From Bacteroidota bacterium (lineage in GTDB: Bacteria > Bacteroidota > JABWAT01), in NCBI GenBank assembly GCA_020161835.1, contig JAIUNL010000004.1, forward strand, positions 65,049 to 129,048: DNA of 64,000 nucleotides. The letters are read 5' to 3'. The stretch's first letter is position 1. Every line of letters starts with the position of its first letter. Below, piece by piece: positions 870 through 21,232 of this stretch. Made by a program: the position numbers and the translations under genes. The notes under the pieces are model-generated. The model saw only the letters and a list, made by a program, of their open reading frames with translations, did no database searches and was not told where the DNA came from.

Positions 870-873
870 TCCC

Positions 874-3087
874 ATGAAAACGACCCGTCATTTCATCGCC
901 ATTTTTCTTGCTGCAGGCTTATTCTTCATCAGCAGCAGCACCTTCGCCCAGACTAAAATTTCCGGAACGGTTAAATCCGGTTCCGGTGAACCTTTGAGTT
1001 ATGCCAATGTCATTCTGCTCGGCACCACTTCAGGAGGCATGACCGATGAAAACGGGTCGTTTTCCTTTTCCGCAACAAAAACAGAACCCGGAACTGTGCA
1101 GATTTCACTGCTGGGATATCAGAAAAAATGGGTAGCCATCAAGCCGGTAGCCGGTAAACCAGTTGTCATTAAAGTGACACTTGAAGAAGCCGATATCACC
1201 CTTTCTGAACTGGTTGTGACCGGATCTTCTTACAGCACCGAATCGGTTTCAGGTTTACCCGTAAGTCCCATGGAAATTGTGATGACGCCCGGCGGTGCTG
1301 CCGATGTTTTCCAGATGCTGAAAACCCTGCCCGGACTCACACCCGTTTCTGAAAGTGCAGATTTGTACGTCAGAGGCGGTGAACCGATGGAATCGGTTGT
1401 TCTGACTGATCAGGCGGCGATTTACCATCCGAGCACGTTTGAATCAACTTATGGCGGGTTGTTTTCTTCCCTTCCCCCATCGCTGGTGAAAAATCTGTGG
1501 TTTTCTTCCGGTGGTTTTCCGGCGAAATATGGAAATGCACTTTCCGGAATTCTGGATATTGAAACCCGGAATGAACCTACAGATTACCGGTTTAATTCAG
1601 GCTGGAATTTTGCGGGATGGGATGCGCAAGCCTCGATTCCCATTCGTAAAGAAAAATCTGGCATGACTGTTTTCTTCAAGAAAAGTGAGACCGGTCTGCT
1701 CATGAAAATCAATCAGAATACACGCCCCTTTACATCGTATCCGGCAGGTTGGACGACGGGCGGAACGTACAGTCACAAATATTCTGAAACCGGACGGGTG
1801 AAACTCAATATTCTGGCCGGTGAAGATGCACAGGGTGTAAATGTAAACCGTCCGGAAGGACAATCACAATTTGACGGAAATTCTGAGAATCAGAATCTCG
1901 GACTTTCATTGTCGGATGTGTGGAATCAGAAACTGGTCATCAAAACCGGTGTTGCCGTGAATCAGTTTGCCAAAACCTGGAAACTGGGTGTTCTGGATCT
2001 CGATGAAACCGACAGAACCGTGCAAACCCGTACCGATTTCGAATGGATGGGAGCCAACGGACAAAAATGGTATTTCGGCGGAGAAGTCCGTTTTCGGAAG
2101 GATGGCTTTTCCGGTAAAGTCCCGGCATCAGACAAAGATTACCGGTCTGGGGCAGCCTTTAAAACCATCAACCCGTCAGAATCTATCACAACCGGCGGCG
2201 GATATCTCGAATGGGAACAATCCGGCTGGCTGGGAATTCCGGCTTTGTCGACACGGGCAGGATTCCGCACCGACAACAGTTCCGACCGGAAAAATCCGAC
2301 CGTAGATCCCAGAATCACACTTGCAGGTCCGCTCTCAGGAAACTGGACAGCCAGTTTAAACTGGGGAATTTTCCATCAATCTGCCTGGCTGCCTGTATCC
2401 GACCGTCAGCATCTTAACAAAAACCTGCCGGCCATGTCGGCCATTCACACCGTATATTCAATGACCTATTCCGGTACCGAATCGAACACCTTCCGGGCAG
2501 AAATCTGGAATAAAAACTATGACCATCTTCCATTAAAAACCGGAACGACGTTTTCTTCGGATGGATACGGATTTGCCCGGGGTCTCGATGTGATTTACAA
2601 AGGATTGCTGCCCGGCGGCATTGACGGCTGGATCAGTTACGGATGGTCAGTTTCGAAAAGAAAGTGGCTCGATTCAGACGGACTTTCACCGTCTTCTGCA
2701 GATATTACCCACAACCTGACCTGGATCGGAAAGAAGAATCTAAATCCGTTCTGGCAGTTGGGATGGAATCTGAAACTGGCAACCGGCAGACCTTACACGC
2801 CCGTCACCGGCGGCCTTGCAGATACAACACTCGGATTATTCACTCCGGTTTACGGAAAAACCAATTCAGACCGGCTTCCCTTCTACCACCGGCTGGATGT
2901 GAGAATCACTTACACCAATTCATTTCTTGACCGTTTTTTTCTCGTTGGCTACGCAGAACTGCTGAATATTCTGGATACAGATAACCCGATGGGCTATTCC
3001 TGGAACTCAGATTACACGAAAAAAATACCGGTGAGAAGCTACTTCGGCAACCGGACGGTAGTGCTGGGAACTTCAATTTCTTTTTAA
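874..3087 (+). CDS. TonB-dependent receptor-like outer membrane beta-barrel protein with N-terminal carboxypeptidase-regulatory-like domain
   Basis: Signal peptide (LAAGLFFISSSTFAQ); N-terminal ISGTVKSG...GSFSF motif typical of the CarbopepD_reg-like domain preceding TBDR plug/barrel; C-terminal residue F typical of OM beta-barrels; 737 aa. Confidence 0.6.
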   Translation: MKTTRHFIAIFLAAGLFFISSSTFAQTKISGTVKSGSGEPLSYANVILLGTTSGGMTDENGSFSFSATKTEPGTVQISLLGYQKKWVAIKPVAGKPVVIKVTLEEADITLSELVVTGSSYSTESVSGLPVSPMEIVMTPGGAADVFQMLKTLPGLTPVSESADLYVRGGEPMESVVLTDQAAIYHPSTFESTYGGLFSSLPPSLVKNLWFSSGGFPAKYGNALSGILDIETRNEPTDYRFNSGWNFAGWDAQASIPIRKEKSGMTVFFKKSETGLLMKINQNTRPFTSYPAGWTTGGTYSHKYSETGRVKLNILAGEDAQGVNVNRPEGQSQFDGNSENQNLGLSLSDVWNQKLVIKTGVAVNQFAKTWKLGVLDLDETDRTVQTRTDFEWMGANGQKWYFGGEVRFRKDGFSGKVPASDKDYRSGAAFKTINPSESITTGGGYLEWEQSGWLGIPALSTRAGFRTDNSSDRKNPTVDPRITLAGPLSGNWTASLNWGIFHQSAWLPVSDRQHLNKNLPAMSAIHTVYSMTYSGTESNTFRAEIWNKNYDHLPLKTGTTFSSDGYGFARGLDVIYKGLLPGGIDGWISYGWSVSKRKWLDSDGLSPSSADITHNLTWIGKKNLNPFWQLGWNLKLATGRPYTPVTGGLADTTLGLFTPVYGKTNSDRLPFYHRLDVRITYTNSFLDRFFLVGYAELLNILDTDNPMGYSWNSDYTKKIPVRSYFGNRTVVLGTSISF

Positions 3088-3176
3088 ATGCGGATTTGCG
3101 CGCAAAGGCGCTAAGACACAAAGAAAACGCTAAGCGGAGGGAGGGTTTTTTATTTAATTCATGGATGAAATTCGTA

Positions 3177-3210
3177 GGGGCGACCGGCCGGTCGCCCGTG
3201 TTTTTTTGTT
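3177..3210 (+). terminator. rho-independent terminator (GGGGCGACCGGCCGGTCGCCC + TTTTTTTG) after TBDR-like gene
   Basis: GC-rich perfect hairpin followed by T-run. Confidence 0.75.
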
Positions 3211-3233
3211 TTTAATAGAAATACCGAATTAAG

Positions 3234-3312
3234 TTCCCCTCTCCCGATAAAATCGGGATTTTCAACTTTTCAAGGAGAGCCCGTCCCGAACGCTTTCGGG
3301 AGGTTAGGGGTG
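3234..3312. repeat. composite palindromic element (TTCCCCTCTCCCGATAAAATCGGGA...GGAGAGCCCGTCCCGAACGCTTTCGGGAGG..GGGG); copy at 15775-15850
   Basis: Direct comparison. Confidence 0.7.
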
Positions 3313-3601
3313 GTTTGATATTTAAACTATTAAAACCGCATTCCCAAAATTGATATTTAATCCTGATTTTATCCGCGAAATCAGCGGGATCTGCGGGAAA
3401 ATAGTACCTCCGGGATTACCGACCAGAGGTCGGTGTTACATAAATTCCCATCCCACCGCTCTGTGTTCATTGGTATTTCCTTTGTGCCCGTTGTGGTAAA
3501 ATAAAATTCCCATCCCACCGCTCTGCTTCCTCCGTGTCTCCGCGGTTGAATTTTCCACCTGCCCAAACATTAGAATCAGATTAGAGACCACCTCATTCCT
3601 T

Positions 3602-3623
3602 TAAATGAATTTGAATTCATTTA
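3602..3623. promoter_or_regulatory. palindromic operator-like site TAAATGAATT-TG-AATTCATTTA immediately upstream of tetR
   Basis: 10-bp perfect inverted arms with 2-nt spacer seen directly in sequence ~40 bp upstream of the TetR start; typical TetR-family autoregulatory operator architecture. Confidence 0.5.
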
Positions 3624-3664
3624 TAATTATCCTCAGATTTATCCCATCACAAAACAGGTGGGTC

Positions 3665-4252
3665 ATGAGAAGAAAAGAAGGTAATAAGGAAGAAGATATT
3701 CTGAAGGCAGCTACTGAAGTCTTTGCTCGGGAAGGATTTCACCTCGCCAAAATTTCGCAGATTGCTGAAAAGGCCGGACTTTCCGTCGGAACGGTTTATC
3801 TCTATTTCGAAAACAAAGATCATCTTTTGCAACGGATTTTCGAAACTCTCTGGGAAGGACTTCTCGACCATTCCCAAAAACTTATCGAAACCCCAAACCT
3901 GAATGCCCTTGAAAAGATTGACGGCATTGTGGATGTTGTGTTTGACACGTTTGCTGAAAATCCGTCTTTGGGGGCAGTATTCCAAAAAGAAATGCACCAC
4001 GTTTCAAATTTAAAACATACCCCTTTCCGCACTTACTTTGAACAGTTCATTTCCATCGGTGAAAAAATTCTTGCTGAAGGCCGTGAACAATCCCTTTTCC
4101 ATCCTGAAACCAATCTTCATGTTGCCGTTTCCTTCATTTTTGGCGGACTCCGGTTTTCGGTTCATCAGTGGACGTTACATCCTGATGCTGAATCCCTGGT
4201 CATTTTCAGAACGGGTATCAAGAAAATCATCCGGAATGGATTGTCTGTCTGA
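3665..4252 (+). CDS. TetR/AcrR family transcriptional regulator
   Basis: N-terminal HTH signature ILKAATEVFAREGFHLAKISQIAEKAGLSVGTVYLYFENKDHLL; start placed at the internal ATG (MRRKEG) rather than ORF-track start 3605. Confidence 0.8.
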   Translation: MRRKEGNKEEDILKAATEVFAREGFHLAKISQIAEKAGLSVGTVYLYFENKDHLLQRIFETLWEGLLDHSQKLIETPNLNALEKIDGIVDVVFDTFAENPSLGAVFQKEMHHVSNLKHTPFRTYFEQFISIGEKILAEGREQSLFHPETNLHVAVSFIFGGLRFSVHQWTLHPDAESLVIFRTGIKKIIRNGLSV

Positions 4253-4313
4253 GATCACCAGAAAATTCGTTTTTCACTTCACAATGAATTTTTTTCTTTT
4301 GCCTTTTTTTCCA

Positions 4314-4346
4314 GGTCTGCACCTTTTTCTGGGTGCAGAATTTTAT
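4314..4346 (+). terminator. stem-loop (GTCTGCACC..GGTGCAGAA) followed by TTTTATT between tetR and tolC-like gene; possible intrinsic terminator/attenuator
   Basis: 7-8 bp GC-containing stem followed by T-run, seen in sequence. Confidence 0.4.
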
Positions 4347-4360
4347 TACCAGCTATCAAC

Positions 4361-5815
4361 ATGAATACCCATAAAATTTCCCCGTTTTTCTTTCTTGCCC
4401 TGCTTCTCCCCCTGACAGGTACGTCTCAAAACTTTTCCCTCCCCGATGCGGTTCAGTCAGCCCTTTCCACCCATCCGAAACTGAAGCAAATGGAATCCCG
4501 GAAAGAACAAAAATCCGATCTGACCAAATCGTCCTGGGGAAATTATATGCCGTCAGTTTCCGTTCAGGGAACTTACAACCGGCTGAATGGTCCGCTCGAA
4601 ATTAATTTATCGCCGGTCCGGGAAGTCATTCTTCAGCTTCAGTCGAAAAACTCAGCAGAAATTAAAAATCTGTACGGAATTGCACAGGGTGCCGGTTCCA
4701 TGACCGATGCACAGAAAGCCCAGGTTGCAGCAGGAGCTTATCAGCAACTGGACAAATCCATTCCGGCTTTTGTGGAAAGTGTGAAAGATCAGACATATCC
4801 TTCCGCCAACATTACCGCCGTTCAGCCTCTTTTCACCGGTGGAAAACTGCTGGCAGCCTCTGGTTTTGCTAGAGCAGAAGAAGTTGCCGCCGATGCAGAA
4901 TTCAGAAAAACCCGGGAAGACATTATCCTTGAAACGACCAAATCGTACTGCACCGTATTACTGATGCAATCGGTTGTTGAAACCCGGAAACAGGTTCTCG
5001 TGGGCATGAAAATCCACCTGAAACAAGCTATCAAAGCCGAGTCGGAAGGACTGATTTCGTACCAGCAACGGCTCAGGGCAGAAGTTGCCGTGTCAGATGC
5101 AGATCAGAATTTATCCGCCGATCAGAATAATCTGGACCTTGCATTAACCGCTTTTAAATCCGTCGCCGGAATCCCGGAATCTGCTGTCATTTCGTTGACG
5201 GATTCTCTCTTTTTCCGGGAACTGTCCGATTCTGTTCAACTCGCCGGTTCCGGATTTTCCCATCAGCCGGTTCTGTCCCTGCTTTCTGCCAAAGAACAAT
5301 CAGCCGTTATGGGAAGCCGGGTTAAATTGTCTGAATTTATGCCAACCGTTGCCCTTTTCGGCCGGTATGAATTATTTCCTGATGATCTTTCTGTGCTGGA
5401 ACCGAAATGGATTGTTGGGGTTAGCCTCAGCATGAATTTGTTCCGTGGCGGATCATCTTATTACGACTGGCAAGCCGCAAAAAGTCAGGTTGATGAAGTG
5501 AAATTTGCCCGGAAGGAAGCAGAACGGCAGATCAGTTTATGGATGAGCAAATCGTGGCAAACCCAGAAAAGTGCTGCCAGCCGGTATCAGAATCTGGCCG
5601 TTAATGTGAAACTGGCCCAGGAAAATCTGCGTGTTGCAGAAACCCGTTTTAAAGCCGGAATGGCAACGTCTCTCGATGTCATTGATGCCCGGCTTGTTCT
5701 TGAAAAAAACCAGATTGACCGTCATCAGGCGTTGTTTACCTATCAGACGTCCGTGGCAGATTGTTATGCTGCAGCCGGACTTTCAGACCAAATTCTGACC
5801 TGGTGGGTTAAATAA
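4361..5815 (+). CDS. TolC family outer membrane efflux protein
   Basis: Signal peptide, 484 aa, two-repeat coiled-coil/beta architecture typical of OMF (TolC) proteins; operon position before HlyD-family adaptor. Confidence 0.75.
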   Translation: MNTHKISPFFFLALLLPLTGTSQNFSLPDAVQSALSTHPKLKQMESRKEQKSDLTKSSWGNYMPSVSVQGTYNRLNGPLEINLSPVREVILQLQSKNSAEIKNLYGIAQGAGSMTDAQKAQVAAGAYQQLDKSIPAFVESVKDQTYPSANITAVQPLFTGGKLLAASGFARAEEVAADAEFRKTREDIILETTKSYCTVLLMQSVVETRKQVLVGMKIHLKQAIKAESEGLISYQQRLRAEVAVSDADQNLSADQNNLDLALTAFKSVAGIPESAVISLTDSLFFRELSDSVQLAGSGFSHQPVLSLLSAKEQSAVMGSRVKLSEFMPTVALFGRYELFPDDLSVLEPKWIVGVSLSMNLFRGGSSYYDWQAAKSQVDEVKFARKEAERQISLWMSKSWQTQKSAASRYQNLAVNVKLAQENLRVAETRFKAGMATSLDVIDARLVLEKNQIDRHQALFTYQTSVADCYAAAGLSDQILTWWVK

Positions 5816-5846
5816 GTACGGAAAGAATTTTAAAAGGAAATTTGAA

Positions 5847-6827
5847 ATGAAATTGAATAAAACGTTACTCATTCTGCTGGTTCCCGTGATTCTGATTTCG
5901 GTAACGGTCGTTTATCTGCTGTTTAAACCGGAACCTGCCAACATCCGGGTGGGAATGATTGAGGCGCCGGAGACTGATATTGCTGTGAAAATCCCCGGAA
6001 GACTCGACAGTATTTTCGTTTCGGAAGGTGATGTGGTTTCTGCAGGAACCCGGCTCGGAACCATGAAAAGTCCGGAACTGCAGGCAAAAGCAAATGCTGC
6101 CGAAGACGCCTGGAAAGCAGCCAAACTGAAAGCCCAGATTGCCGGGAAAGGTGCGAGACCAGAAGAAATTAAGGCAGTGGAAAAACTGTATGAACAGGCC
6201 AGTCATCAGTTTGAACTGGCATCAAAAACCTGGAAACGGGTTCAGTCGGTTTATTCGGAAGGCGTCATGTCAACCCAGGAACGGGATCAGGCAGAATTTC
6301 AATTCAACGCTGCCCGTGATCAGATGGAAGCAGCAAAAGCCAAATCCGACATGGTGAAATCCGGACTCCGGCCCGAAGAAGTTCAGGCTGCAGAAGCCAT
6401 GGCTGCTGCTGCCGGAGAGCAATATAACGAAGTAAAAAGTTATCTGGACGAAACTCAGATTCAGTCACCGGTTGCCGGGGAAGTCACCAAAATTGTAGCA
6501 GATGCGGGTGAAATGGTTGCCGCCGGATATCCGGTTTTTACGGTCATAGACAGAAGTAAATCCTACGTCGTCATCAACGTCAGAGAAACCGATCTTGCTC
6601 TTATTAAAACAGGAACACAAATGCCGGGAAGGTTACCCGGACTTGGCGGCGAAACGGTCACCTTTGAAGTGTATTCTATTGCTGCTGCCGCCGATTATGC
6701 CACTTGGCGATCCACTCAGGAAAAAGCAGATTTCGATTTGAAAACTTTTGAAGTCCGCCTGAAACCCGTTTCGAAAGGAATTGATTTCCGTCCGGGAATG
6801 ACCGTTCAATTGGAATGGCCGGAATGA
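5847..6827 (+). CDS. HlyD family periplasmic adaptor (membrane fusion protein)
   Basis: N-terminal TM anchor, long Ala/Glu/Lys-rich coiled-coil hairpin, C-terminal beta-barrel-like domain; 326 aa; follows TolC gene. Confidence 0.75.
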   Translation: MKLNKTLLILLVPVILISVTVVYLLFKPEPANIRVGMIEAPETDIAVKIPGRLDSIFVSEGDVVSAGTRLGTMKSPELQAKANAAEDAWKAAKLKAQIAGKGARPEEIKAVEKLYEQASHQFELASKTWKRVQSVYSEGVMSTQERDQAEFQFNAARDQMEAAKAKSDMVKSGLRPEEVQAAEAMAAAAGEQYNEVKSYLDETQIQSPVAGEVTKIVADAGEMVAAGYPVFTVIDRSKSYVVINVRETDLALIKTGTQMPGRLPGLGGETVTFEVYSIAAAADYATWRSTQEKADFDLKTFEVRLKPVSKGIDFRPGMTVQLEWPE

Positions 6828-8026
6828 CAAAAAAACCACGTTCCCCCTGGGTGCAGATTGCCATCCGGGAATGGAACCGTATTCTTGAACGGAAAACCTA
6901 CTGGCTGCTGATGGTGATTCTTCCGCCGGTTCTGACGGTTTTCATCGGATCCATTTATCTGAAAGGATCCGTCACTGATATTCCGGTCGGGATTGTGGAT
7001 CTCGACCAGACGCCTCTTTCCCGGATGCTGATCAGAGCCATTGACGACTCGCAAGCACTTTCCGTGGAAGGTCACTACCTTTCTGTCACTGAAGCCAGGC
7101 AAGCCTTGTTGTTTGGTCGATTGCAAACTATTGTGGTAATACCGGACGGATTAACCTCCGATGCGAAATCCGGTCGGCCCGGCTCGGTGACAGTGCTTAA
7201 AAATGCCTCCAATCTTCTTTATTCCAACTCTGTTACCAAAGAAATTTCAACGATTGTCCGAACAGTTTCGGCAGGAATTTTAGTCCGCCGGTTTGAAGCC
7301 AAAGGCCAGCAACCCGATCAGGCGCTGGCATCCGCTGATCCAATCAAAGTGGACACTCACGGTCTTTACAATCCAACCTACAATTACGAACAGTTCCTGA
7401 TTCCGTCTCTCCTTGCCATGGTTTTGCTCTTGGGCGTCATGGTGGTTTCCGTTCTGGTTATTGCAGATGAATTCCGGGAAGGAACCTGGCAGGAAGTTTT
7501 GGATCTGTCAGGATCTGACTGGCTGGTCATTTTTTCCGGGAAATCGCTTCCCCATCTTTTTATTCACGGACTTCAGTCGGTCGTTCTGGTTTTCTTCTGG
7601 TTCCATGTATTCGGAATTCATCTTTCCGGATCGGCCGCCGGTGCAGTTTTCCTTTTATTTCTTCTGATTTCTGCTGGATTTTTTCTCGGGATGGCAGTTT
7701 CCTGCTGGATTCATGACGAATTTCTTTCTACCGAAGTGGCCATTTTTTTCAATACCCCGGCCTTCATCTTCAGCGGGTTAACCTTCCCCCTCTGGGCGAT
7801 GCCAGGCCTTCACCAGGGATTTGCAGGCATTCTGCCTTTCACCCATTTTCTTCGGGCATGGGTGAAACTGGCGGTGATGAACACGCCTGCCGATTCCTGG
7901 CTGGGTGATGTCCTGATTTTAGGCGGATTTTCTCTTCTCGGAATCGTGCTTTCTCTCCTTTTTTTGTACCAATCAACCCGTCCCGGATTTGTGATTGAAG
8001 AAGCCCATCCGGAGGTGGTTGTATGA
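6815..8026 (+). CDS. ABC-2 type transporter permease
   Basis: 403 aa; N-terminal TM then large periplasmic loop then 5 TM segments; overlaps the upstream HlyD gene by 13 bp; YhhJ/YbhS-like topology. Confidence 0.7.
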   Translation: MAGMTKKPRSPWVQIAIREWNRILERKTYWLLMVILPPVLTVFIGSIYLKGSVTDIPVGIVDLDQTPLSRMLIRAIDDSQALSVEGHYLSVTEARQALLFGRLQTIVVIPDGLTSDAKSGRPGSVTVLKNASNLLYSNSVTKEISTIVRTVSAGILVRRFEAKGQQPDQALASADPIKVDTHGLYNPTYNYEQFLIPSLLAMVLLLGVMVVSVLVIADEFREGTWQEVLDLSGSDWLVIFSGKSLPHLFIHGLQSVVLVFFWFHVFGIHLSGSAAGAVFLLFLLISAGFFLGMAVSCWIHDEFLSTEVAIFFNTPAFIFSGLTFPLWAMPGLHQGFAGILPFTHFLRAWVKLAVMNTPADSWLGDVLILGGFSLLGIVLSLLFLYQSTRPGFVIEEAHPEVVV

Positions 8027-9198
8027 TTCAATTCCGGCTAAGAGGCATGATTGCCACGGCAAAACGGGAAGCCCGGATGATCAAAGCCGATAAAAATATT
8101 CTGTTGATTATCATTCTGGCGCCTCTGTTCTACGCCTTTTTTTACACGGCCATTTACTATCACAAAGTTGAACTGAAACCGGCTGTTATTCTGGTTGATG
8201 AAGATCATTCTTCCCTCAGCCGCCAGCTCCTCCGTGCGTATGAAACCAGTCAGTATCTTGATGTTTATGTGTACCCGGGCCCCGGATCGGCCCAAAAAGC
8301 CATGGAAGATCTGGACGGAATGGCAATTATCCGGATTCCAGCCGGATTTCAATCTGACCGCCAGTCGGGCAAACGGGTGACGGTGAGTTTATATCTGAAC
8401 AACGCCTATTTTCTGGTATCCAACGATATCAACAAAGCTGTCAATGAAGTGACGGCAACGTTTGGCGCCGGCATCAAACTGAAAATCCTGGAATCGAAAG
8501 GCGAAAACCGGGAACAGGCACTTGCTCACATCGATCCCATTTCTGTCCGCAGTCATGCGCTTTCCAATCCGTCTGAAAGCTACGGGAATTTTATGATTCC
8601 TGCCCTGTTCATTCTGGTCCTTCACCAGACTTTGCTGATCGGACTTTCAGAAAGTATGGCGGATGAACGGGCAACCCGTTCTCTGGGTGAACTGTACCGG
8701 ACGGCAGAAGGATCAACCTGGGCGCTGGTCATGGGAAAGGGATCGTTTTACCTGGTGCTATATTGTGCGTATGCCGTCTTCTTCCTCACGATCGGACTTA
8801 CGTTTTTCAATCTTCAGGTTGCTGGAAGTTATCTGGCTCTGGCAGTTTTAACCGTTTTAATGATTTTGTCGGTGATTTATGCCGGGATTTTCCTGGCGTC
8901 TTTTTTCACGAGGAAGATTGTGGCTCTGCAGATTCTGGCGTTCACCACTTACCCGATATTTCTGGCATCAGGTTACAGCTGGCCGGAAGGCTCCATGCCG
9001 GTCTGGCTTCAGTGGCTGGCAAATCTGTTTCCGGGAACACCGTATTTTCAGGGATTCTCCAGAATTGTTTTCCTGGGTGCAGATCTGGAACACGTTCTCC
9101 CCGAACTTTTTCATCTGCTTCTGATTCTTGCTTTGGGAATTACTGCAACCCGGCTCCGTCTCCCGAAAATTGCAAAATGGCAGGCAGAGCACTACTAA
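8023..9198 (+). CDS. ABC-2 type transporter permease (paralog of the upstream gene)
   Basis: 391 aa; same topology and conserved blocks as the 6815-8026 product (e.g. IVVIPDG/IIRIPAGF, HGLYNPTYNY/HALSNPSESY); 4-bp overlap. Confidence 0.7.
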   Translation: MIQFRLRGMIATAKREARMIKADKNILLIIILAPLFYAFFYTAIYYHKVELKPAVILVDEDHSSLSRQLLRAYETSQYLDVYVYPGPGSAQKAMEDLDGMAIIRIPAGFQSDRQSGKRVTVSLYLNNAYFLVSNDINKAVNEVTATFGAGIKLKILESKGENREQALAHIDPISVRSHALSNPSESYGNFMIPALFILVLHQTLLIGLSESMADERATRSLGELYRTAEGSTWALVMGKGSFYLVLYCAYAVFFLTIGLTFFNLQVAGSYLALAVLTVLMILSVIYAGIFLASFFTRKIVALQILAFTTYPIFLASGYSWPEGSMPVWLQWLANLFPGTPYFQGFSRIVFLGADLEHVLPELFHLLLILALGITATRLRLPKIAKWQAEHY

Positions 9199-9254
9199 AA
9201 CAAAGGTTAAAGGTTTAATTGTAAAGGTTAAATGGGAAATGCAAATTTTCCCGC

Positions 9255-9865
9255 AGATCTAACGGATTTCTGCTGAAGAAAAAAGAGTTCAACCACAGAA
9301 ATATCAGAAGTCACAGAAAAAACTTCTTTTTAAAACCCGAATTCAATTCCTTTTATGCATATTCTGTACCTTCTGTGGTGAAAAGGTATTGGAGCCCTGA
9401 CTTCACTTTGTGACTTCCGCTGAAGAAAAAAGAGTTCAACCACAGAAACTACAGAAGTAGCAGAAAAAACTTCCTGTTTAAAACATAAACTCAATTCCTC
9501 TTCTGAATATTCTGTTTCTTCTGTGGTGGAAAGGTATTGAAGTCCTGACTTCACTTTGTGACTTCCGCTGAAGAAAAAAGAGTTTAACCACAGAAATAAC
9601 AGAAGAAGCAGAAGGTAATTTCCTTTTAAGAACCCGAATTCAATTCCTTTTCTGCATATTCTGTACCTTCTGTGGTGGAAAGGTATTGAAGTCCTGACTT
9701 CACTTTGTGATTTCCGCTGAAGAAAAAAGAATTCAACCACAGAAATATCAGAAGTCACAGAAAAAACTTCTTTTTAAAACCCGAATTCAATTCCTTTTCT
9801 GCATATTCTGTACCTTCTGTGGTGAAAAGGTATTGGAGGCGTGTCCTGAATTTGGGATTTCCAAT
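9255..9865. repeat. tandem array, ~4.1 copies of a 149-bp unit (family A of the 149/150-bp repeats)
   Basis: Unit starts at ~9271, 9420, 9569, 9717; copies ~85-95% identical; each unit contains imperfect inverted repeat AACCACAGAA...CAGAAG / CTTCTGTGGTG. Confidence 0.9.
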
Positions 9866-9978
9866 TTGAATACTTACAAGTAAATATTCAAAATGTTTCT
9901 TGTTTGATTAAACAATTTAAATACTTTAACTTCATTTATTCTAAACCCATCGAGTTTAAAAAAACCGGATAAAAAAAT

Positions 9979-10677
9979 ATGATGAACAAATTTACATACC
10001 CGACTTATTTCTTAGCCATTGTTTTTGTTATCACAATTTTTTCAGGCTGTACGGCCAATTATTCCCGGTTTTCGCCTGAGAGCCCCGAACAGATAAAGAA
10101 AATAAAAAGGATCGGATTATTAACCCCTGAAATCAATATCCGTGAAATCAGCGCTGGCGGCTCCAGTATCGTTTTAGGTGAACATACTGCAACTTCAAGG
10201 AAATATTTTATTGAAAACACAAAAAAGATATTTGAAAAAAAGGGCATTGAAGTCAAATTTATCGATCTGTCTGGTCAGGATTCGCTTCGTTTTATTGAAC
10301 CATTGGCCATGTACCGAACAATAAATAATGCCATCTTACAAAAAGATCCGTCTGAAACGAGGAATAATTTTCAATTTGAAATTGGCTCTCTTGACTCTCT
10401 TTCAGCACTCTACGAGGTTGATGGGTTTTTATTTCTTTCCGGATATGATTTAAAATCATCAACAAGCAGAGTCTTTGCTGAAACTGCATTAGTCGCAGTT
10501 GGGGGATTAGGGGCATCCGAAAAGAGAAGTTTACTCTGTCTTGGAATAGCAGATAAAAGCGGAAAATTACTTTTTCACAGTTATAACAATGAACCGGATA
10601 TCTGGATTTTTACCCGGGAACAAAGTGTTAAAGACCTGATGATTAAGGTGACAAGAGATTACACAAGAAAGCTTTAA
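9979..10677 (+). CDS. lipoprotein of uncharacterised family, paralog 1 of 3
   Basis: Signal peptide + lipobox (FSGC); shares blocks with ORFs 10932 and 13469: GC-T.DY.R.S, IK.I...GI..P, E[LI]SAGG, LAMYRT, GS[LI]DSL, VDGFLF..GY, GLADK.GK[IL]L. Confidence 0.6.
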   Translation: MMNKFTYPTYFLAIVFVITIFSGCTANYSRFSPESPEQIKKIKRIGLLTPEINIREISAGGSSIVLGEHTATSRKYFIENTKKIFEKKGIEVKFIDLSGQDSLRFIEPLAMYRTINNAILQKDPSETRNNFQFEIGSLDSLSALYEVDGFLFLSGYDLKSSTSRVFAETALVAVGGLGASEKRSLLCLGIADKSGKLLFHSYNNEPDIWIFTREQSVKDLMIKVTRDYTRKL

Positions 10678-10686
10678 GTTTTTTTC

Positions 10687-10724
10687 AATTTAGGGTAATC
10701 GTAATCCAATGATTACCCTAAATT
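10687..10724 (+). terminator. 14-bp perfect inverted repeat AATTTAGGGTAATC..GATTACCCTAAATT right after lipoprotein-1 stop (hairpin; no strong T-run)
   Basis: Seen in sequence; placement 10 bp after stop codon. Confidence 0.35.
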
Positions 10725-10931
10725 TTCACAAATTGATCTGTTAATCAAACAAAATGGTTTTTCCTGATAACCAGCACATGTTGTATTGAATCTATTTCCG
10801 CTTCCTTCCCGATCAAAAATTAACCTGTGATTATAAATTAAGTTTAGATTACCGTCTTATGATACTCTTATTGATTTGACCAAGCCGAACTCTTAACTTT
10901 AAACCCTACCCAGATGTTACCAAAACTTTGA

Positions 10932-11648
10932 TTGGATCCCAACATGAACTTTTCAAAAATGTCGTTTTTCACTTTTTTGGTTTTTGCAGGAATGACAATT
11001 TCCGGCTGTACGTCTGACTATACCCGTTTTTCTTCGAATGGCCATCAGCAAATCAAGCAAATAAAAAAAGTTGGAATTATTACCCCAGATGTTAAAGTTT
11101 ATGAACTTGGAGCAGGCGGAGCAAATACTCCTCTTGGAAAACAAACAGAAATTGCCCGGAATTTTCTTTTTGAGAATACAAAAGTATCATTGCAGAATCT
11201 GGGAATGAAGGTCAGAAAGATTGATTTGCAGGGAGGAGATTCCCTTCTTTTTCAGGAAACGTTGGCCATGTACCGCACAGTTGATGATGCCATTCTGGGT
11301 AAAAAGACAAGCGATACCAAGAAAAAATTTGAATATGATCTGGGTTCATTAGACTCCCTTGCATTATATTATGATGTCGATGCCTTTCTTTTCCTGAGAG
11401 GTTATGATACTGAACCCTCATCGAACCGCAGCGCAGCAGCAGTTGCAGGGGTGGTGACAGGCGTTCTTTTTGGCGTGGGCGTCATTTTACATGAACCCAG
11501 CTTTCTTTCTGTCGGACTTGCAGACCGTGACGGTAAAATTTTGTTTTATAACTTCAACAATGAAATGGATACCTGGAATTACACTAAGGAAAAAGATGTA
11601 AAAAAGCTGACTGAAAAGCTTTTCAAAGAATTCTCAAAGAAAAAGTAA
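10932..11648 (+). CDS. lipoprotein of uncharacterised family, paralog 2 of 3
   Basis: Signal peptide + lipobox (ISGC); conserved blocks as above. Confidence 0.6.
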   Translation: MDPNMNFSKMSFFTFLVFAGMTISGCTSDYTRFSSNGHQQIKQIKKVGIITPDVKVYELGAGGANTPLGKQTEIARNFLFENTKVSLQNLGMKVRKIDLQGGDSLLFQETLAMYRTVDDAILGKKTSDTKKKFEYDLGSLDSLALYYDVDAFLFLRGYDTEPSSNRSAAAVAGVVTGVLFGVGVILHEPSFLSVGLADRDGKILFYNFNNEMDTWNYTKEKDVKKLTEKLFKEFSKKK

Positions 11649-11669
11649 CTATGATTCAGGAAATGAACT

Positions 11670-12857
11670 ATGACCCGGTTTCCGTTTTTGTATAATTTTT
11701 TAACCATTTCCATTCTCTGTTTTGCATTTTCGCTTAAAGCACAGGAAAAAAAAGCGAGAATCTTCGAAAACGATGAAACAGAAATCTGGAAAGAAAGCCA
11801 GATCGAACAAAGAAAAATAAATGAAAGCGGACTCATTTACCAGGATGATTCACTCGAAGCCTATCTTAACAATGTTCTGATTAAGGTTACAGGAATTTAT
11901 CCTGAACCGATTCAGCCAAAAATAAAAGTTTTAAAAAGTCCCGTGTTAAATGCCTTCGCCTATCCAAACGGAGTCATGTATATCCATTCAGGCTTGCTTG
12001 CCAAAATGGAAAATGAATCCCAGCTTGCAACCTTACTCGGACATGAAATTACCCATTCTACCAACCGTCATGCTGTACTGGCCTTTCGCTCACAAAAGAG
12101 CAACAGTGACGCACTTGCATTTTTTAGCATTCTTTCAGGTGGATTTGGGTTGATTGGGGCAGTCGCACGTTTGATTGGTGAGGTGGGTTATATGGCATCG
12201 GTTTCCGGGTATTCTCAGGAATTGGAAAAGGAAGCTGATGGGGTTGGGTTTCAGCGAATGAAAAGATCTGGATACAACGTGACTGAAGCCCCCAAGCTGT
12301 TTGGAATACTCAAACGGGATCTTGATCAGGAACCACCTGCAGAAAAACAATCTTTCTTTTTCAGTTCACATCCAAAACTGGATGACCGGATAAAAAATTA
12401 CAACCAGCTTTTAAATAATTTAACGGTAAAACCAGATTCGGCAGGTGTTGATTCTGTTTTTATAAAGAAAACCAGAAAACTCCTCTTTGATAATATCGGA
12501 ATTGATATTCAGTCAGGACGTTATAATTCTGCTCATTTCTCTTCAATTGTTTATGCAACCAGATTCCCCTCAGATTACCGCATCTATCTGCTTCAGGCTG
12601 AAATTATGAACAAACGATTCCCTGATGATTCAAATAAACAAACTGAGGTAATGGAATTATATAAAAAAGTTGTTGATCTGGATTCTACCCAGGCAGAAGC
12701 ACAAAAAAATCTTGGAAAATGGCATTTTAAAAAGGGTGATTATACGGCTGCATTGCCCTATCTTGAAGCCTATTTGAAACTGTCACCTGATGCAAAAGAT
12801 AAAGGCTATATCGAAGGTTACCTCAGAAAAATTAAAACCTCAATGGATTCAAAATGA
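11670..12857 (+). CDS. M48 family zinc metallopeptidase with C-terminal TPR-like region (BepA/YfgC-like architecture)
   Basis: HEITH (HExxH), downstream ELEKEAD (third zinc ligand ExxAD) and SHPKLDDRI motifs characteristic of peptidase M48; signal peptide; C-terminal helical repeats. Confidence 0.75.
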   Translation: MTRFPFLYNFLTISILCFAFSLKAQEKKARIFENDETEIWKESQIEQRKINESGLIYQDDSLEAYLNNVLIKVTGIYPEPIQPKIKVLKSPVLNAFAYPNGVMYIHSGLLAKMENESQLATLLGHEITHSTNRHAVLAFRSQKSNSDALAFFSILSGGFGLIGAVARLIGEVGYMASVSGYSQELEKEADGVGFQRMKRSGYNVTEAPKLFGILKRDLDQEPPAEKQSFFFSSHPKLDDRIKNYNQLLNNLTVKPDSAGVDSVFIKKTRKLLFDNIGIDIQSGRYNSAHFSSIVYATRFPSDYRIYLLQAEIMNKRFPDDSNKQTEVMELYKKVVDLDSTQAEAQKNLGKWHFKKGDYTAALPYLEAYLKLSPDAKDKGYIEGYLRKIKTSMDSK

Positions 12858-13417
12858 AAAAAATAACGTACTCACTATTACTTCTTTCTATCTTTCTGGT
12901 TTCTTGTGGACCACAATGGAACACCGTTACAAAATCAGTTTCTGATAAAAAAACCGGTGCCGTTTTAGCTGCGCCAACCGGCTGGAAATACATGGAGCTG
13001 CAGAATAAAATTATGCTCACTCCTGACAGCCCGGATTTAGGACTTTTGGTTTATCAGGTTCTCTCTGTTTCAAACCCCATGCGGTTTACCAAACAAATTG
13101 TACAAAAAAATATGCTGCCTGAAGATTTGGCTGCACTGATTACTGATAATTACCAATTAAATCAGGGTTTATCTCAATTTAAAGTTTTAGAAAACAATCC
13201 GGAAGTATTGGCTGGAATTGAAGGATTTCGTCTTATTTCGGAATATAAATCGGGTGATGGTAACCCGATGAAAATGCTAACGGTTGGGATAAGTCTGCAG
13301 GATAATGCAGTCATTCTTGAATTTACAGCTCCGAAAAGAGTCTATTTTGATAAGTATAAACCTGAAATCGAAGCCATTTTAAGCAAATTCCAACTGTCAC
13401 CAGATCTAAAAAAATAA
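12854..13417 (+). CDS. hypothetical lipoprotein
   Basis: Signal peptide + lipobox (LVSCG); 4-bp overlap with M48 gene. Confidence 0.5.
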   Translation: MKKITYSLLLLSIFLVSCGPQWNTVTKSVSDKKTGAVLAAPTGWKYMELQNKIMLTPDSPDLGLLVYQVLSVSNPMRFTKQIVQKNMLPEDLAALITDNYQLNQGLSQFKVLENNPEVLAGIEGFRLISEYKSGDGNPMKMLTVGISLQDNAVILEFTAPKRVYFDKYKPEIEAILSKFQLSPDLKK

Positions 13418-13468
13418 GTTGACCTTACTTTTTCAAAACTGAATATTTTACTTATAAAAAGTTCTCCA

Positions 13469-14206
13469 ATGAAAAAAAACAGTATCCTTTTTTCAGTTCT
13501 TCTATTAAACTGGGTGATATTCAACGGTTGTACTCCTGATTATACAAGGTATTCTTCAAAAGGCCCTTATCTGGTTCAAAGTATAAAAACCATTGGAATT
13601 ATTTCACCTGATTTGGGAATTTTCGAGTTAAGTGCCGGCGGAAGTTCTGAAAAACTTGGAGCAGAATCTGAAAAATCCAAAGTGCTTATTCTAAACGCTT
13701 TTACATCCGAGTTAAAAAAATCTGGAATTGAAGTAAAACTAATCGATTTAAAGGGTCCCGATTCCACCCGTCTTGATGAAACACGTGCCATGTTCAAAAC
13801 GGTAAATGAGGTTATTCTTACAAAAAGTACTGATGAAACCAAATGGAAATTTGAATTTGACATCGGTTCAATAGATTCTCTTGCCACACAGTATCAGGTT
13901 GATGGATTTCTTTTTATTCAGGGATATGAAACCCGGAATTCTGCCGGGAGAAATTTTGCAGCGACGGCGGGCGTTGTTTCTGCTGTATTGGTTGGATCAG
14001 GTACGGTTTACCATAACCCCTATTTAATCTCTTTTGGGTTAGCTGATAAAAAAGGCAAAATTCTGTTGCATAATCATCAAACGGGCGTTGACGGCTCAAA
14101 ATGGACACTTGACGATGCGGAAGAAGTAACAGAAATGACTGAATTTTTATTCAAAACATTTCATGAAGGACTTAAAATCGTTTACAAAATACCAAAAAAG
14201 AAATAG
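13469..14206 (+). CDS. lipoprotein of uncharacterised family, paralog 3 of 3
   Basis: Signal peptide + lipobox (FNGC); conserved blocks as paralogs 1 and 2. Confidence 0.6.
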   Translation: MKKNSILFSVLLLNWVIFNGCTPDYTRYSSKGPYLVQSIKTIGIISPDLGIFELSAGGSSEKLGAESEKSKVLILNAFTSELKKSGIEVKLIDLKGPDSTRLDETRAMFKTVNEVILTKSTDETKWKFEFDIGSIDSLATQYQVDGFLFIQGYETRNSAGRNFAATAGVVSAVLVGSGTVYHNPYLISFGLADKKGKILLHNHQTGVDGSKWTLDDAEEVTEMTEFLFKTFHEGLKIVYKIPKKK

Positions 14207-14351
14207 CCGGTTATCAGAAAAATTGATGCTGAGTTTGATTTACCATTAATCATTGCCCCTTAACCATTATAGCCTTTTTCCCTTCACTTTTACTATGTAA
14301 TTTGTCCTCCGAATCCATCAAAGGCAGGATTAAAATATCACTGTAACTTTC

Positions 14352-14725
14352 ACTTAAGAAAAATGGGTTTAACCACAGAAATTACTGAAGGAGCAGAAAG
14401 AAATTTCCCAATAAAAACCCGAATTCAATTCCTTTTCTGCATATTCTGTGTCTTCTGTGGTGAAAAGGTATTGGAGTCCTGTCCTGACTTTGTGATTTCA
14501 TCTGAAGAAAAAAAGAGTTTAACCACAGAAATTACAGAAGGCACAGAAGGAAATTCCCTATTAAAAACCTGAATTCAATTCCTTTTCTGCATATTCTGTG
14601 TCTTCTGTGGTGAAAAGGTATTGGAGTCCTGTCCTGACTTTGTGATTTCATCTGAAGAAAAATGGGTTTAACCACAGAAATTACAGAAGGAGCAGAAAGT
14701 AATTTCCCAATAAAAACCCGGATTC
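14352..14725. repeat. tandem array, ~2.5 copies of the 149-bp unit (family A)
   Basis: AACCACAGAAATT recurs at 14371, 14521, 14671; unit ~85% identical to the 9255-9865 units. Confidence 0.9.
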
Positions 14726-14761
14726 AAGATTCATTAACCATTAATCATTTACCATTAACCA

Positions 14762-15730
14762 TTATTCCCCTGCGTCTTCCGCATCAAAGCCTTGTTCTCT
14801 GAGCCACCGGCTGAAAATTCCTTCTGTTCCATGAGTTACGATGATTTTGTCAGCTCCGGATTCAGTTATCGCCTTATTTAATGCCGGCCAATCAGCATGA
14901 TCTGACAAAATAAATCCACGGTCAAACGCCTGCCAGTTTCTTCTCTTACTCACCGCCATCCACCCCGAAGCAAAAGCAACCGAATACGGTTCAAACTGAG
15001 TCATGAACGGTGATCCTTTCCCCGAAACCGGTGTGATCACCAATCCCCGTCTGAGTTCCTCCGGCTTCACTGAGTCAACCAGTAAATTGACTTTTGGAAC
15101 GGGAATTCCAAATTCCCGGAGTGACTGATTCATGGTCTCCACGGAAGGATGACAGAAAACAGGTCCGGTTGAATAATCGAGATGATGAAGAATCCGTTGG
15201 GCTTTTCCCAAAGAGTAGGCGTTCAATACGGAAGTTTTTCCTTCAGCCTGGTTTTGTTTCCACCAGCGGTTGATTTCAGCAAAAACCTGATCCTGATCGG
15301 GCCAGCGATAAATGGGAAGTGCAAAAGTTGCTTCAGTGATGAAGGTGTTGCATGTCACAGTTTCAAAAGGCTGGCAAACCCGGTCATTTTCAAGTTTGTA
15401 ATCTCCCGACGCCACCCAGACTTCACCCTGATACTCCACACGGACCTGAGCCGAACCGATGATATGTCCTGCCGGGTGCAAACTGATCGTAACGCCGTTG
15501 ATGGTTACCGGGACACCATACTCTTCAGTTCTGAGGCGAATATTTTTCCCGAGACGGGTTTTGAGAACCGGTTCAGAGTCACGGTGAGCGAAATAAGAAG
15601 CGTGCCCGGACCGGGCATGATCTGAATGTCCGTGCGTAATCACAGCCCGCTGAACAGAACGAAGCGGGTCGATGTAAAAATCTCCGGCTTCGCAGTAAAT
15701 TCCGTTGGGTGTAAATTGGAGAAGGGGCAT
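14762..15730 (-). CDS. metallo-beta-lactamase fold exonuclease (ligase-associated DNA damage response exonuclease-like)
   Basis: N-terminal LQFTPNGIYCEAGDFYIDP...VITHGHSDH motif (HxHxDH MBL signature); 322 aa. Confidence 0.5.
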   Translation of the reverse strand: MPLLQFTPNGIYCEAGDFYIDPLRSVQRAVITHGHSDHARSGHASYFAHRDSEPVLKTRLGKNIRLRTEEYGVPVTINGVTISLHPAGHIIGSAQVRVEYQGEVWVASGDYKLENDRVCQPFETVTCNTFITEATFALPIYRWPDQDQVFAEINRWWKQNQAEGKTSVLNAYSLGKAQRILHHLDYSTGPVFCHPSVETMNQSLREFGIPVPKVNLLVDSVKPEELRRGLVITPVSGKGSPFMTQFEPYSVAFASGWMAVSKRRNWQAFDRGFILSDHADWPALNKAITESGADKIIVTHGTEGIFSRWLREQGFDAEDAGE

Positions 15731-15774
15731 TTTGGTTACATATTACGGGTTACAGATCACGTGTTAATTTCCAG

Positions 15775-15850
15775 GTTCCCCTCCTTTTTTAAAGGAGAGC
15801 CTGCCCCGAACGCTTTCGGGACACCCCTCCTTAAAAAGGAGGGGAATTTT
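15775..15850. repeat. composite palindromic element (CCCCTCCTTTTTTTAAAGGAG...CCGAACGCTTTCGGGAC...CCCCTCCTTAAAAAGGAGGGG); copy of element at 3234-3312
   Basis: Direct comparison of the two loci. Confidence 0.7.
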
Positions 15851-15949
15851 TCATCCTTATTACATTTCAAAAACCTTATAGCGTACAACGTCCCCCGTAA
15901 TACGTTTTGCGTTTTCCCGTGACCCGTAATAAGTGACCCGTAACCATCC

Positions 15950-16861
15950 TTAATCCATTACTGTTTTCATGCAGAAAACTGATCCGCCGGATTTCATATA
16001 TTCGCCGGTTTCAATCTGGATGACTTCATATCCTTCTTTCTGAAGAATATCAATAACGATTGAATTGGATTTTTGGATAACGGCAACTTTTTTCTCACCG
16101 GATTCATCAAAAACGGCATCGAAATTCAGAGAAAAAGTTTCCTTCACATCCGCCATCGGAATGTCATACACTTTTTTGTACATCTGATGGATGACGGCAA
16201 GTCCTTCTTTGCTGAAGGCATCGGGGCAGATGAGAACGGTATCATCATCAAGAGGAGAGAAACAGGTGTCGAGATGATAGAAATACGGCGAAACGAGCTC
16301 AAGGCAGATAATCGGTGTTTTCAGTTTTGCAGAAATTTCATCGTACATAAACCGGTCAGACCGGTGACCGTAACCACCCCAGATCAATCTTTTGTACGGA
16401 TGCGGAATGGCATCACCACCACCTTCAAAAAGTCCTTTTCCTTCCAGTTCAATGATTTTAAATCCCTGACGTTCACAGAAAAGCCGATGATGTTCCACTT
16501 CCCGCTGACGGCTTGGGTAACGCATGTGCGAAAGGACGACACAGCGGGTATCATCCACTACCCAGGAATAAATCGGATTGCAGCAGAACACCATATCTTC
16601 CAAACCTTCTGCACCCGGTTCAACAAACAAGCCACGGATAAGTCCACGTTTGTATAAAGCTTCATAGGTATCACGAAGTTGCTGCCACTGCTTTTTTGCC
16701 AGCCGCCGGTCGATGATACTGCCTTCCATGTACACGTTTTTAACGTCGATCACATCAAAATAATCGGGAATGGTGAGCAGGACGTTCTGCTGCGGCCCCC
16801 GGTCTTCAAGATCACTTATGGTAAAATCGGGTTTATCGTAGGCTTTGGCGAGTGGTTTCAT
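15950..16861 (-). CDS. amidinotransferase-superfamily protein (DDAH/arginine deiminase-like)
   Basis: 303 aa; C-terminal SGGSVFCMK resembles the catalytic Cys motif (GGxxxC) of the guanidino-group modifying enzyme superfamily; start overlaps selD stop. Confidence 0.45.
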   Translation of the reverse strand: MKPLAKAYDKPDFTISDLEDRGPQQNVLLTIPDYFDVIDVKNVYMEGSIIDRRLAKKQWQQLRDTYEALYKRGLIRGLFVEPGAEGLEDMVFCCNPIYSWVVDDTRCVVLSHMRYPSRQREVEHHRLFCERQGFKIIELEGKGLFEGGGDAIPHPYKRLIWGGYGHRSDRFMYDEISAKLKTPIICLELVSPYFYHLDTCFSPLDDDTVLICPDAFSKEGLAVIHQMYKKVYDIPMADVKETFSLNFDAVFDESGEKKVAVIQKSNSIVIDILQKEGYEVIQIETGEYMKSGGSVFCMKTVMD

Positions 16862-20609: not shown

Positions 20610-20688
20610 GTAGGGCAGACCGCAAAGGCCCAAAGTCGCTAAGAAATTCAATCTTTTAGAAAATACAAAGAATTAAAAATTAATTTCT

Positions 20689-21108: not shown

Positions 21109-21232
21109 TCATTTTTTTGCTCTTAACTATAAAATAATTAGAGTCTTAGCGCCTTTGGGGTCTCTTTGAATTATCCTTTGTCTTTAACTTTAAAAAACTT
21201 AGCGTCTTAGCGCCTTTGGGGTCTCCTTTCCA

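Follow-up and report, generated by a model that had tools for sequence, protein, structure and literature searches.

Tandem hairpin arrays of a Bacteroidota bacterium and their likeness to the word rows that bracket GxxExxY genes

Three intergenic sites in a 64-kb stretch of the genome of a Bacteroidota bacterium, the whole of which is called the window here, carry head-to-tail arrays of a repeat unit of about 149 bp, in which reiterated short words form an imperfect hairpin. The arrays are non-coding, and their word architecture is widespread. This architecture is statistically and physically tied to genes of the GxxExxY family (TIGR04256/PF13366), with word type and protein changing together. 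We lean towards reading the units as gene-less counterparts of a two-armed shell that brackets GxxExxY nuclease genes, amplified in tandem; one unit at each of the three sites appears to have been multiplied locally.

Three arrays of one hairpin unit

The arrays were delimited with Tandem Repeats Finder, which gives the copy numbers, periods and matches below, and unit starts were anchored on AACC[AG]CAGAA.

9268-9835, + strand: array 1, period 148, 3.8 copies, 87% matches.
14348-14727, + strand: array 2, period 150, 2.6 copies, 89% matches.
26859-27145, + strand: array 3, period 157, 1.8 copies, 88% matches.

Nine unit anchors, all on the + strand (9291, 9438, 9586, 9735, 14371, 14521, 14670, 26872 and 27029), set the unit spacing at 147, 148 and 149 bp in array 1, 150 and 149 bp in array 2 and 157 bp in array 3. 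The four head-to-tail 149-bp units that the initial annotation had placed in array 1 are thus real, with measured spacings that replace its 149/149/148. Its two further loci, about 2.5 copies at 14352-14725 and two copies of a diverged variant of roughly 150 bp at 26850-27150, correspond to arrays 2 and 3.

A complete unit holds three (A)CAGAA words at 9-nucleotide (nt) spacing, a loop of about 52 nt and three TTCTG(T) words. The window units read ACCACAGAA / (A)CAGAA / (A/G)CAGAA, with the 9-nt spacing on both arms. Each unit is a long imperfect palindrome with arms of 28-31 nt, and a linker of 41-61 nt, conserved from unit to unit and partly from array to array, separates successive hairpins. 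The left-arm pattern AACCACAGAA-N8-14-CAGAA occurs seven times in the window against 0.00 expected from shuffles, and TTCTGTGGTG with at most one mismatch occurs 21 times against 3.7 expected. The outer word is extended to a 9-bp core, ACCACAGAA/TTCTGTGGT, in all complete units of arrays 1 and 2; a perfect core had been ascribed to every copy, and array 3 departs from this with one G.T position (ACCGCAGAA/TTCTGTGGT).

9292-9379, + strand: hairpin of unit 1, array 1, characterized by sequence, folds and arm comparison; left arm ACCACAGAA-ATAT-CAGAA-GTCA-CAGAA, right arm TTATG-CATA-TTCTG-TACC-TTCTGTGGT, the first right word being degenerate.
9439-9527, + strand: hairpin of unit 2, array 1; RNA fold -35.7 kcal/mol, z = -2.8.
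9587-9676, + strand: hairpin of unit 3, array 1, characterized by sequence, unit alignment and folds.
9736-9823, + strand: hairpin of unit 4, array 1, characterized by sequence and unit alignment.
14372-14461 and 14522-14611, + strand: hairpins of array 2; its third unit is cut after the left arm (14671-14697).
26873-26964 and 27030-27121, + strand: hairpins of array 3, with the core ACCGCAGAA/TTCTGTGGT.

The linker of the window unit also holds the single word-like motifs CTTTGTG and CGCTGAA.

The only long open reading frame (ORF) across array 1, on the minus strand at 9330-9758, is not conserved in a sister species, whose orthologous array has no stop-free stretch longer than 56 amino acids (aa) in any frame. 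A coding reading of array 1 was dropped on this ground, and the non-coding nature claimed for it earlier holds.

Word-built hairpins across phyla

The architecture of the window units recurs far beyond their lineage. A scan of one genome per species for CAGAA-N4-CAGAA-N{40,70}-TTCTG-N4-TTCTGTGG matched 75 stretches from about a dozen phyla, where we estimate some 0.5 chance matches (1.2e12 positions x 31 gap lengths / 4^23). The carriers include Bacteroidota, Planctomycetota, Verrucomicrobiota, Lentisphaerae, other bacteria of the PVC (Planctomycetes-Verrucomicrobia-Chlamydiae) group, Acidobacteriota, Alpha-, Beta-, Gamma- and Deltaproteobacteria, Fibrobacter, Nitrospirota, Chloroflexi and Armatimonadota. 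Their consensus arm is NNN-CCACAGAA-NN-CACAGAA-NN-CACAGAA, followed by its inverse, and most of these hairpins pair far better than those of the window.

Like the window units, many of them are intergenic, 80 of 92 hairpins lying outside ORFs of at least 120 aa. In many genomes they are clustered, with several copies per 8 kb, or tandem: loci L044 (period 129 bp) and L017 (207 bp) hold tandem arrays, L003, L004 and L048 clustered copies, and L014 is a further case. Such hairpins are also carried by the cultivable Leyella stercorea DSM 18206 (L024, L038). Gene orientation around the hairpins (31 co-directional, 9 convergent and 5 divergent contexts) is not clearly off background. A viral origin was considered and dropped, the hairpin pattern having only two hits in 2.9 million viral contigs.

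Two of these loci are organized in a more elaborate way. In L004, from a Planctomycetaceae metagenome-assembled genome (MAG), positions 728-7829 hold five CACAGAA hairpins, each nested within outer arms of CGCAAAG/CGCCAAG words, and these two-layer shells occupy nearly every intergenic gap of an 8-kb stretch. In L017, from a Nitrospirota MAG, a 207-bp tandem unit at 3200-3830 alternates a CGCAGAA-word hairpin with a more degenerate CGCTGAG/CGCAGAG hairpin, a composite array that resembles the hairpin-plus-linker unit of the window.

Association with GxxExxY genes

When the ORFs of the 75 loci were clustered, with no prior expectation, one small family was found to adjoin the hairpins in unrelated genomes. 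This family is PF13366 (PDDEXK_3), TIGR04256, the 'GxxExxY protein'. Three unrelated genomes have the gene directly flanked on both sides by hairpins or arms:

L003 (Prevotellaceae): hairpin 2032-2131, GxxExxY gene 2187-2561, hairpin 2581-2663.
L076: hairpin 2102-2186, GxxExxY gene 2199-2573, hairpin 2585-2677.
L044 (PVC group): two tandem hairpins, GxxExxY gene, a lone right arm and two further tandem hairpins.

The association was also seen from the side of the protein. Metagenome contigs scanned with a GxxExxY alignment yielded 80 loci, and in 60 of these the gene is bracketed by an inverted repeat of two to five reiterated words. A flanking inverted repeat scoring at least 16 accompanies 46 of 66 GxxExxY ORFs (70%), but among 660 other ORFs only 20 (3%) have one. 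Several of these 20 control ORFs sit between hairpins of pattern-selected loci, and one, in L025, is a genuine RAYT (REP-associated tyrosine transposase) with its own REPs (repetitive extragenic palindromes); its recovery is an internal positive control that validates the flank scan.

The words themselves are locus-specific (CACAGAA, CGCAGAA, CACAGAG, CGCAGAG, CGCCAAG, CGCAAAG, CACGAAG, C(A/G)CAGAT, CGCGAAT, CGCTGAT and CGCTAAG), and all fit C-R-C-N-R-A-N at a spacing of 9-11 nt. In compact cassettes the arms directly adjoin the start and stop codons, as in L094, where an arm, 14 nt, a 363-nt ORF and the second arm follow one another. GxxExxY proteins that share a common word core are 60% identical on average and others 45%, a difference reached by none of 1000 permutations. 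The window units have the same make-up as these shells, with two inverted arms, each holding at least two C-R-C-N-R-A-N words at 9-11-nt spacing. The initial annotation recognised no described bacterial repeat class in them; they indeed lack any Rfam match, but they do belong to these widespread word-built inverted repeats, whose logic is like that of REPINs (REP doublets forming hairpins), miniature inverted-repeat transposable elements (MITEs) and intervening sequences.

Other small genes also stand between inverted repeats. Genes of TIGR02436, the '23S rRNA intervening sequence protein' with a four-helix bundle, are flanked in this way at L129 5235-5585, L146 883-1269 and L137 1387-1704, the score of the L137 repeat falling once the ORF start was left open. 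The repeats are of other kinds, for example 6-nt AAGAT(C/T) words in L129, and these three cases at most hint that repeat type goes with ORF family. At L120 396-689, a small protein that by eye is GIY-YIG-nuclease-like (no NCBIfam match) is likewise inverted-repeat-flanked, with a flank-scan score of 23.

The GxxExxY family is very large, with 7992 of 8000 scored candidates at E <= 1e-10. All 42 sequences compared share D79, E89 and K91, which form a D...ExK motif, and E39, and the AlphaFold2 model is a confident one (pLDDT 90.2, pTM 0.84). The protein is thus confidently predicted to adopt the PD-(D/E)XK nuclease fold with its D...ExK motif intact. No solved structure matching it by sequence and no paper on its function were found. 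Nor was a description of word-built shells around its genes found in the literature, a search that did not extend to subscription journals, so that an earlier account is possible.

A GxxExxY cassette apparently exchanged at a fixed site

The window carries one GxxExxY cassette of its own (20618-21225), which shares the architecture of the array hairpins and differs in word type (CGCAAAG/CGCTAAG):

20618-20643, + strand: left arm, GACCGCAAAGGCCCAAAGTCGCTAAG, with the words CGCAAAG, CCAAAG and CGCTAAG.
20689-21108, + strand: GxxExxY gene, 139 aa; PF13366 PDDEXK_3, TIGR04256; annotated 'GxxExxY protein [Bacteroidetes bacterium]'.
21145-21164, CTTAGCGCCTTTGGGGTCTC, and 21198-21225, CTTAGCGTCTTAGCGCCTTTGGGGTCTC, + strand: right arms, both inverted relative to the left arm; CTTAGCGCCTTTGGGGTCTC is present in two inverted copies, the second lying within 21198-21225.

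The cassette fills the intergenic space between the CN_hydrolase and PAD_porph genes, and all five relatives examined have a GxxExxY cassette at this site. In L160 the PAD_porph neighbour is 98% identical to that of the window, whereas the GxxExxY protein, of 130 aa, is only 53% identical and the words on both arms are CGCTGAG/CGCAGAG rather than CGCAAAG/CGCTAAG. Protein and both arms therefore change as a unit on a nearly constant background. L164 has a 130-aa gene at the site, too.

Array dynamics among relatives

Array 1 is flanked by an ABC-2 permease gene (8023-9198, +) and an unannotated ORF (9979-10677, +), array 2 by convergent genes (13469-14206, + and 14762-15730, -), and array 3 by ychF (25651-26745), which precedes it, and a sigma-54 activator gene. 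The initial annotation had proposed to look for copy-number variation in related genomes, and it is found there. The sister species L010 (GCA_017303995.1, 'Bacteroidetes bacterium UWPOB_BACT1') is syntenic with window positions 8712-16769 at about 88% nucleotide identity. At the syntenic site its array 1 likewise has 3.8 copies, 89-93% identical to those of the window and with a different order of unit subtypes; its array 2 site holds a single decayed copy.

The ychF site of array 3 carries 1.8 units in the window, 3.8 in strain L158, whose adjacent 604-aa protein is 98% identical to that of the window, and one in L164, from the same sister genome as L010, in which the downstream gene differs. 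In the more distant L165 (ychF 88% identical) the unit is absent and the flanking DNA unalignable. Inheritance of the arrays is thus tied to fixed sites, at which they expand or contract by whole units.

These dynamics have a practical side, since short-read contigs end at the arrays (Logan contigs L001 and L002, JGI contig L158). The arrays break short-read assemblies, and their strain-variable copy number makes them possible strain markers.

Words rather than base pairs are conserved in the lineage

The hairpins could act at the RNA level. Once transcribed, by themselves or within flanking mRNAs, they would serve as an RNase III processing site, as a 3'-end stabiliser or terminator, or as a small RNA, as in rRNA intervening sequences. 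We regard this as unlikely, but it is a serious rival and is compatible with a role in DNA. Single units fold as a three-segment hairpin; on the + strand the fold beats that of shuffles in four of five units (z = -2.2 to -4.7), and folding on the minus strand is similar. A precedent exists in ORF-bearing intervening sequences, whose terminal stems are cut by RNase III (PMC4990558).

Covariation in the cross-phylum hairpins also speaks for a stem. In a set of 32, 84.7% of cells are standard pairs against 74.5% after shuffling (none of 500 shuffles reaches the observed values), and 19 of 31 pairs show two-sided changes. Two flanking columns of this set are paired by construction, owing to the selection filter, and the test was redone without it. 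In 40 of the 44 unfiltered loci, where 14 would be expected, the first base outside CC/GG forms a Watson-Crick pair, with four pair types represented; pairing at the second position is seen in 30 of 44 and at the fourth is no better than chance. The pairing of these unfiltered columns shows that the palindrome is genuine and stops about 3 nt past the outer word. A stem in RNA or DNA would be expected to covary in this way, and so, equally, would two ends to which a single protein has to fit.

Strand bias gives the RNA reading little further help. Hairpins beside GxxExxY genes in L003, L020, L044 and L076 have about 13 G.U-compatible and no A.C mismatches on the sense strand, but this bias was set aside, as it is absent from the larger set: around 60 GxxExxY genes of known orientation, the ratio of G.U-compatible to A.C-type mismatches is 81:101, and the long-range repeat is thus not visibly selected as a sense-strand RNA stem. 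Among the hairpin mismatches as a whole the ratio is a balanced 107:91, so that selection on a single transcribed strand is not apparent.

Within the lineage, base pairing is not what is conserved. According to the initial annotation, parallel changes in both arms maintain the structure as the sequence drifts. The 17 aligned hairpins of the window and three relatives contradict this, none of the 20 pairs called by RNAalifold showing a two-sided change and the covariation term being -0.31 kcal/mol. The 4-nt spacers between words are unpaired, each arm of about 30 nt having 5-7 transversion mismatches, and the array families differ by changes in these spacers or by one-sided A-to-G transitions. 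Words, spacing and loop are conserved in the lineage; base pairing is not. This combination of intact words, unpaired spacers and no compensatory change fits word recognition and not stem selection.

Signals expected of a transcribed element are also scarce. The + strand continues 3' of the stem with GGTGAAAAGG, without a U-tract, and the minus-strand T-run begins 6-8 nt past the stem, whereas an intrinsic terminator has a G+C-rich stem directly followed by a U-tract. Arrays 1 and 2 contain no sigma-70-type promoter-like or intrinsic-terminator-like sites, in a scan that omits Bacteroidota-type promoters. Rfam release 15 has no match above the gathering score in the whole window; sub-threshold hits in 9100-10000 are at chance level (for example MIR1509, 20 bits against a threshold of 87), and the hairpins of 18 related loci are without a match at gathering and permissive thresholds alike. 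The arrays do not look like a new RNA-gene family. Among the roles previously put forward, arrays of protein-binding sites fit best and a recombinogenic satellite is borne out by the copy-number variation among relatives, while arrayed small-RNA genes have no positive support.

A weak sub-threshold Rfam match to the Chlorobi-1 RNA lies just upstream of array 1 at 9229-9290, with 18 bits where the gathering score is 50 (E = 0.039). The match overlaps a small hairpin (GGGAAATGCAAATTTTCCC) 3' of the ABC-2 permease gene, and the sequence upstream of array 1, this hairpin included, partly recurs in the sister species. Likeness of the words to DnaA boxes, IS6 ends and V(D)J heptamers was considered and dropped, since only a minority of copies fit.

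A model for the arrays and its weak points

In the explanation that we favour, each shell arm would be a row of two to five short words of the general form C-R-C-N-R-A-N, here (A)CAGAA, placed about one helical turn apart (9-11 nt), and the second arm would be the same row inverted. The words may be binding sites of a nuclease of the GxxExxY family, and shell and nuclease may together make up one cassette, selfish or semi-domesticated, whose parts are exchanged jointly. Gene-less shells could then persist and spread in the manner of REPINs or MITEs. The head-to-tail arrays would have arisen from a once-single unit by local tandem duplication or unequal crossing-over, processes that account for head-to-tail arrays and for copy numbers of 1, 1.8 and 3.8 at one site. 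No host function would be needed for the arrays, and effects of hairpin or cruciform formation, or of RNA 3'-end structure, would be secondary.

Several points weigh against this explanation. That the nuclease binds the words is purely what we infer, and the association between protein and word type might reflect common descent of the whole cassette, not specificity. No GxxExxY gene with CAGAA-type flanking words was seen in the window or among the loci of its relatives (about 40 kb), and no remnant of a GxxExxY gene was seen in the loops of the gene-less hairpins. Insertion of the gene into pre-existing hairpins would give identical associations. Neither a target-site duplication nor a clean empty site was found, and the arrays occupy the same sites in species about 12% diverged, so that recent mobility is unsupported. 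Finally, the loop (…AAACCCGAATTCAATTCC…) is kept across all three array families, and the model leaves its conservation unexplained.

Alternatively, the words could be bound by a host protein that has nothing to do with GxxExxY, for instance a nucleoid-associated protein or a regulator recognising rows of sites one helical turn apart, the arrays then being regulatory or architectural DNA. The conservation of the loop with its GAATTC palindrome and the retention of words while spacers drift are consistent with this, as is the 9-nt spacing, which puts the sites on roughly one helix face; moreover, the arrays are as conserved between sister species (89-93%) as coding DNA (about 88%). We nevertheless consider it improbable. 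The architecture is tied to one gene family across phyla, the word type changes with the GxxExxY gene at one chromosomal site, several word types within one genome are hard to reconcile with a single factor, and the arrays of the window have no candidate regulator linked to them.

A neutral local satellite, that is, a palindrome that arose once and was copied by slippage or unequal recombination with neither partner nor function, would suit the variable copy number in close relatives, the differing subtype order in the window and L010 and the decay of array 2 in the sister species, but is equally improbable, as it leaves unexplained the recurrence of words and spacing in about a dozen phyla, the bracketing of GxxExxY genes and the intact words of three families with diverged spacers.

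Extended beyond the arrays, the shell-and-nuclease explanation leads to a more tentative proposal, which we consider possible but would not yet back. GxxExxY proteins could be the nucleases of an undescribed class of small selfish cassettes, with ends of reiterated 7-nt words, that are exchanged at fixed intergenic sites and leave behind or mobilise gene-less hairpin satellites. They would form the PD-(D/E)XK equivalent of the REPIN-RAYT system and would probably be related to rRNA intervening sequences, which have long lacked an explanation. Through the association described here, the GxxExxY family gains a concrete and testable DNA partner in the word rows on both sides of the gene, the widespread word-built hairpins gain a candidate protein, and the association may provide a handle on the origin and spread of ORF-bearing and ORF-less intervening sequences.

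Other repeats of the window

The window holds many short intergenic arrays of 7-nt words (for example GGTAAGT x5.9 and CATTAAC x4.7), at 14238-14270, 14728-14764, 59626-59666, 43355-43388 / 43558-43591, 44495-44525, 57034-57060, 60237-60269 and 62218-62242. Array 2 is bordered on both sides by ACCATTA-type words, as if embedded in such a stretch, and at 43.4-43.6 kb rows of (N)AATGGT words form an inverted pair 169 nt apart. Neither a four-helix-bundle gene nor a GxxExxY gene adjoins the 7-nt-word arrays checked.

A 99-nt inverted repeat (83% complementary; 41173-41271 / 43468-43566) belongs to another repeat family than the array units and brackets an ORF at 41350-43302 (650 aa), in which internal direct repeats at 843-978-nt spacing suggest a duplicated domain. 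An 82-nt dispersed repeat of the lineage links window positions 44410-44491 with positions 2141-2222 of L010, its array 2 locus, at 88% identity.

Comparison with known systems

The arrays share with CRISPR loci the regular spacing of partly palindromic intergenic repeats. In contrast to them, the whole unit of about 149 bp repeats, at 87-89% identity that includes the part corresponding to a 'spacer', unique spacers are lacking, and no cas genes were found beside the arrays; a CRISPR reading was dropped, as the initial annotation had already judged.

With MITEs such as Correia/NEMIS, ERIC and RUP the units have in common a length of about 100-150 bp, the lack of coding capacity, multiple copies and terminal inverted repeats, together with a longer gene-bearing relative that has the same ends; here the protein of that relative has a nuclease fold and is no recognised transposase. 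No target-site duplication was found, the flanks of the multi-copy families showing no consistent direct repeat. The units differ from MITEs in the stability of their sites across about 12% divergence. They also form head-to-tail arrays of the whole unit, hairpin and 41-61-nt linker together, which points to tandem duplication and not to repeated insertion.

rRNA intervening sequences contain an ORF of about 120 aa inside terminal inverted repeats that form a long stem, about 430 bp in total, or are ORF-less and about 100 nt long (PMC4990558). They are sporadic, horizontal transfer is suspected, and they have been described as selfish elements of unknown origin (PMC4990558). Terminal inverted repeats whose long stem encloses a small ORF or a short loop are a shared trait, and the compact GxxExxY cassettes of L094 and L096, which are of the CACAGAA type, have the same layout. 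The window arrays, in contrast, lie between protein-coding genes, with no rRNA match in the window. Moreover, the S23p / TIGR02436 protein is a four-helix bundle and GxxExxY has a nuclease fold; the arms here are reiterated words, whereas the four-helix-bundle genes of L129 and L146 carry other repeat kinds.

The REPIN-RAYT system offers the closest functional likeness. The two differ in that the partner here has a PD-(D/E)XK fold (PF13366), whereas RAYT is an HUH/Y1 (IS200-like) transposase; phmmer with the L025 RAYT detected no homologue in the window or, L025 itself aside, among the fetched loci. They also differ in the repeat, which consists here of rows of 7-nt words at about 9-nt spacing and in REP of a single 20-35-nt sequence with a GTAG motif. 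With a partner that is not a Y1 transposase, the system falls outside REPIN-RAYT proper. In both, short palindromic non-coding intergenic units, inverted short repeats that form a hairpin, are dispersed, often in clusters or tandem rows, the same repeats in inverted orientation bracket the partner gene, and the repeat type varies with the lineage of the partner gene. By analogy, then, the word-built shells and their gene-less units appear to work most like REPIN-RAYT.

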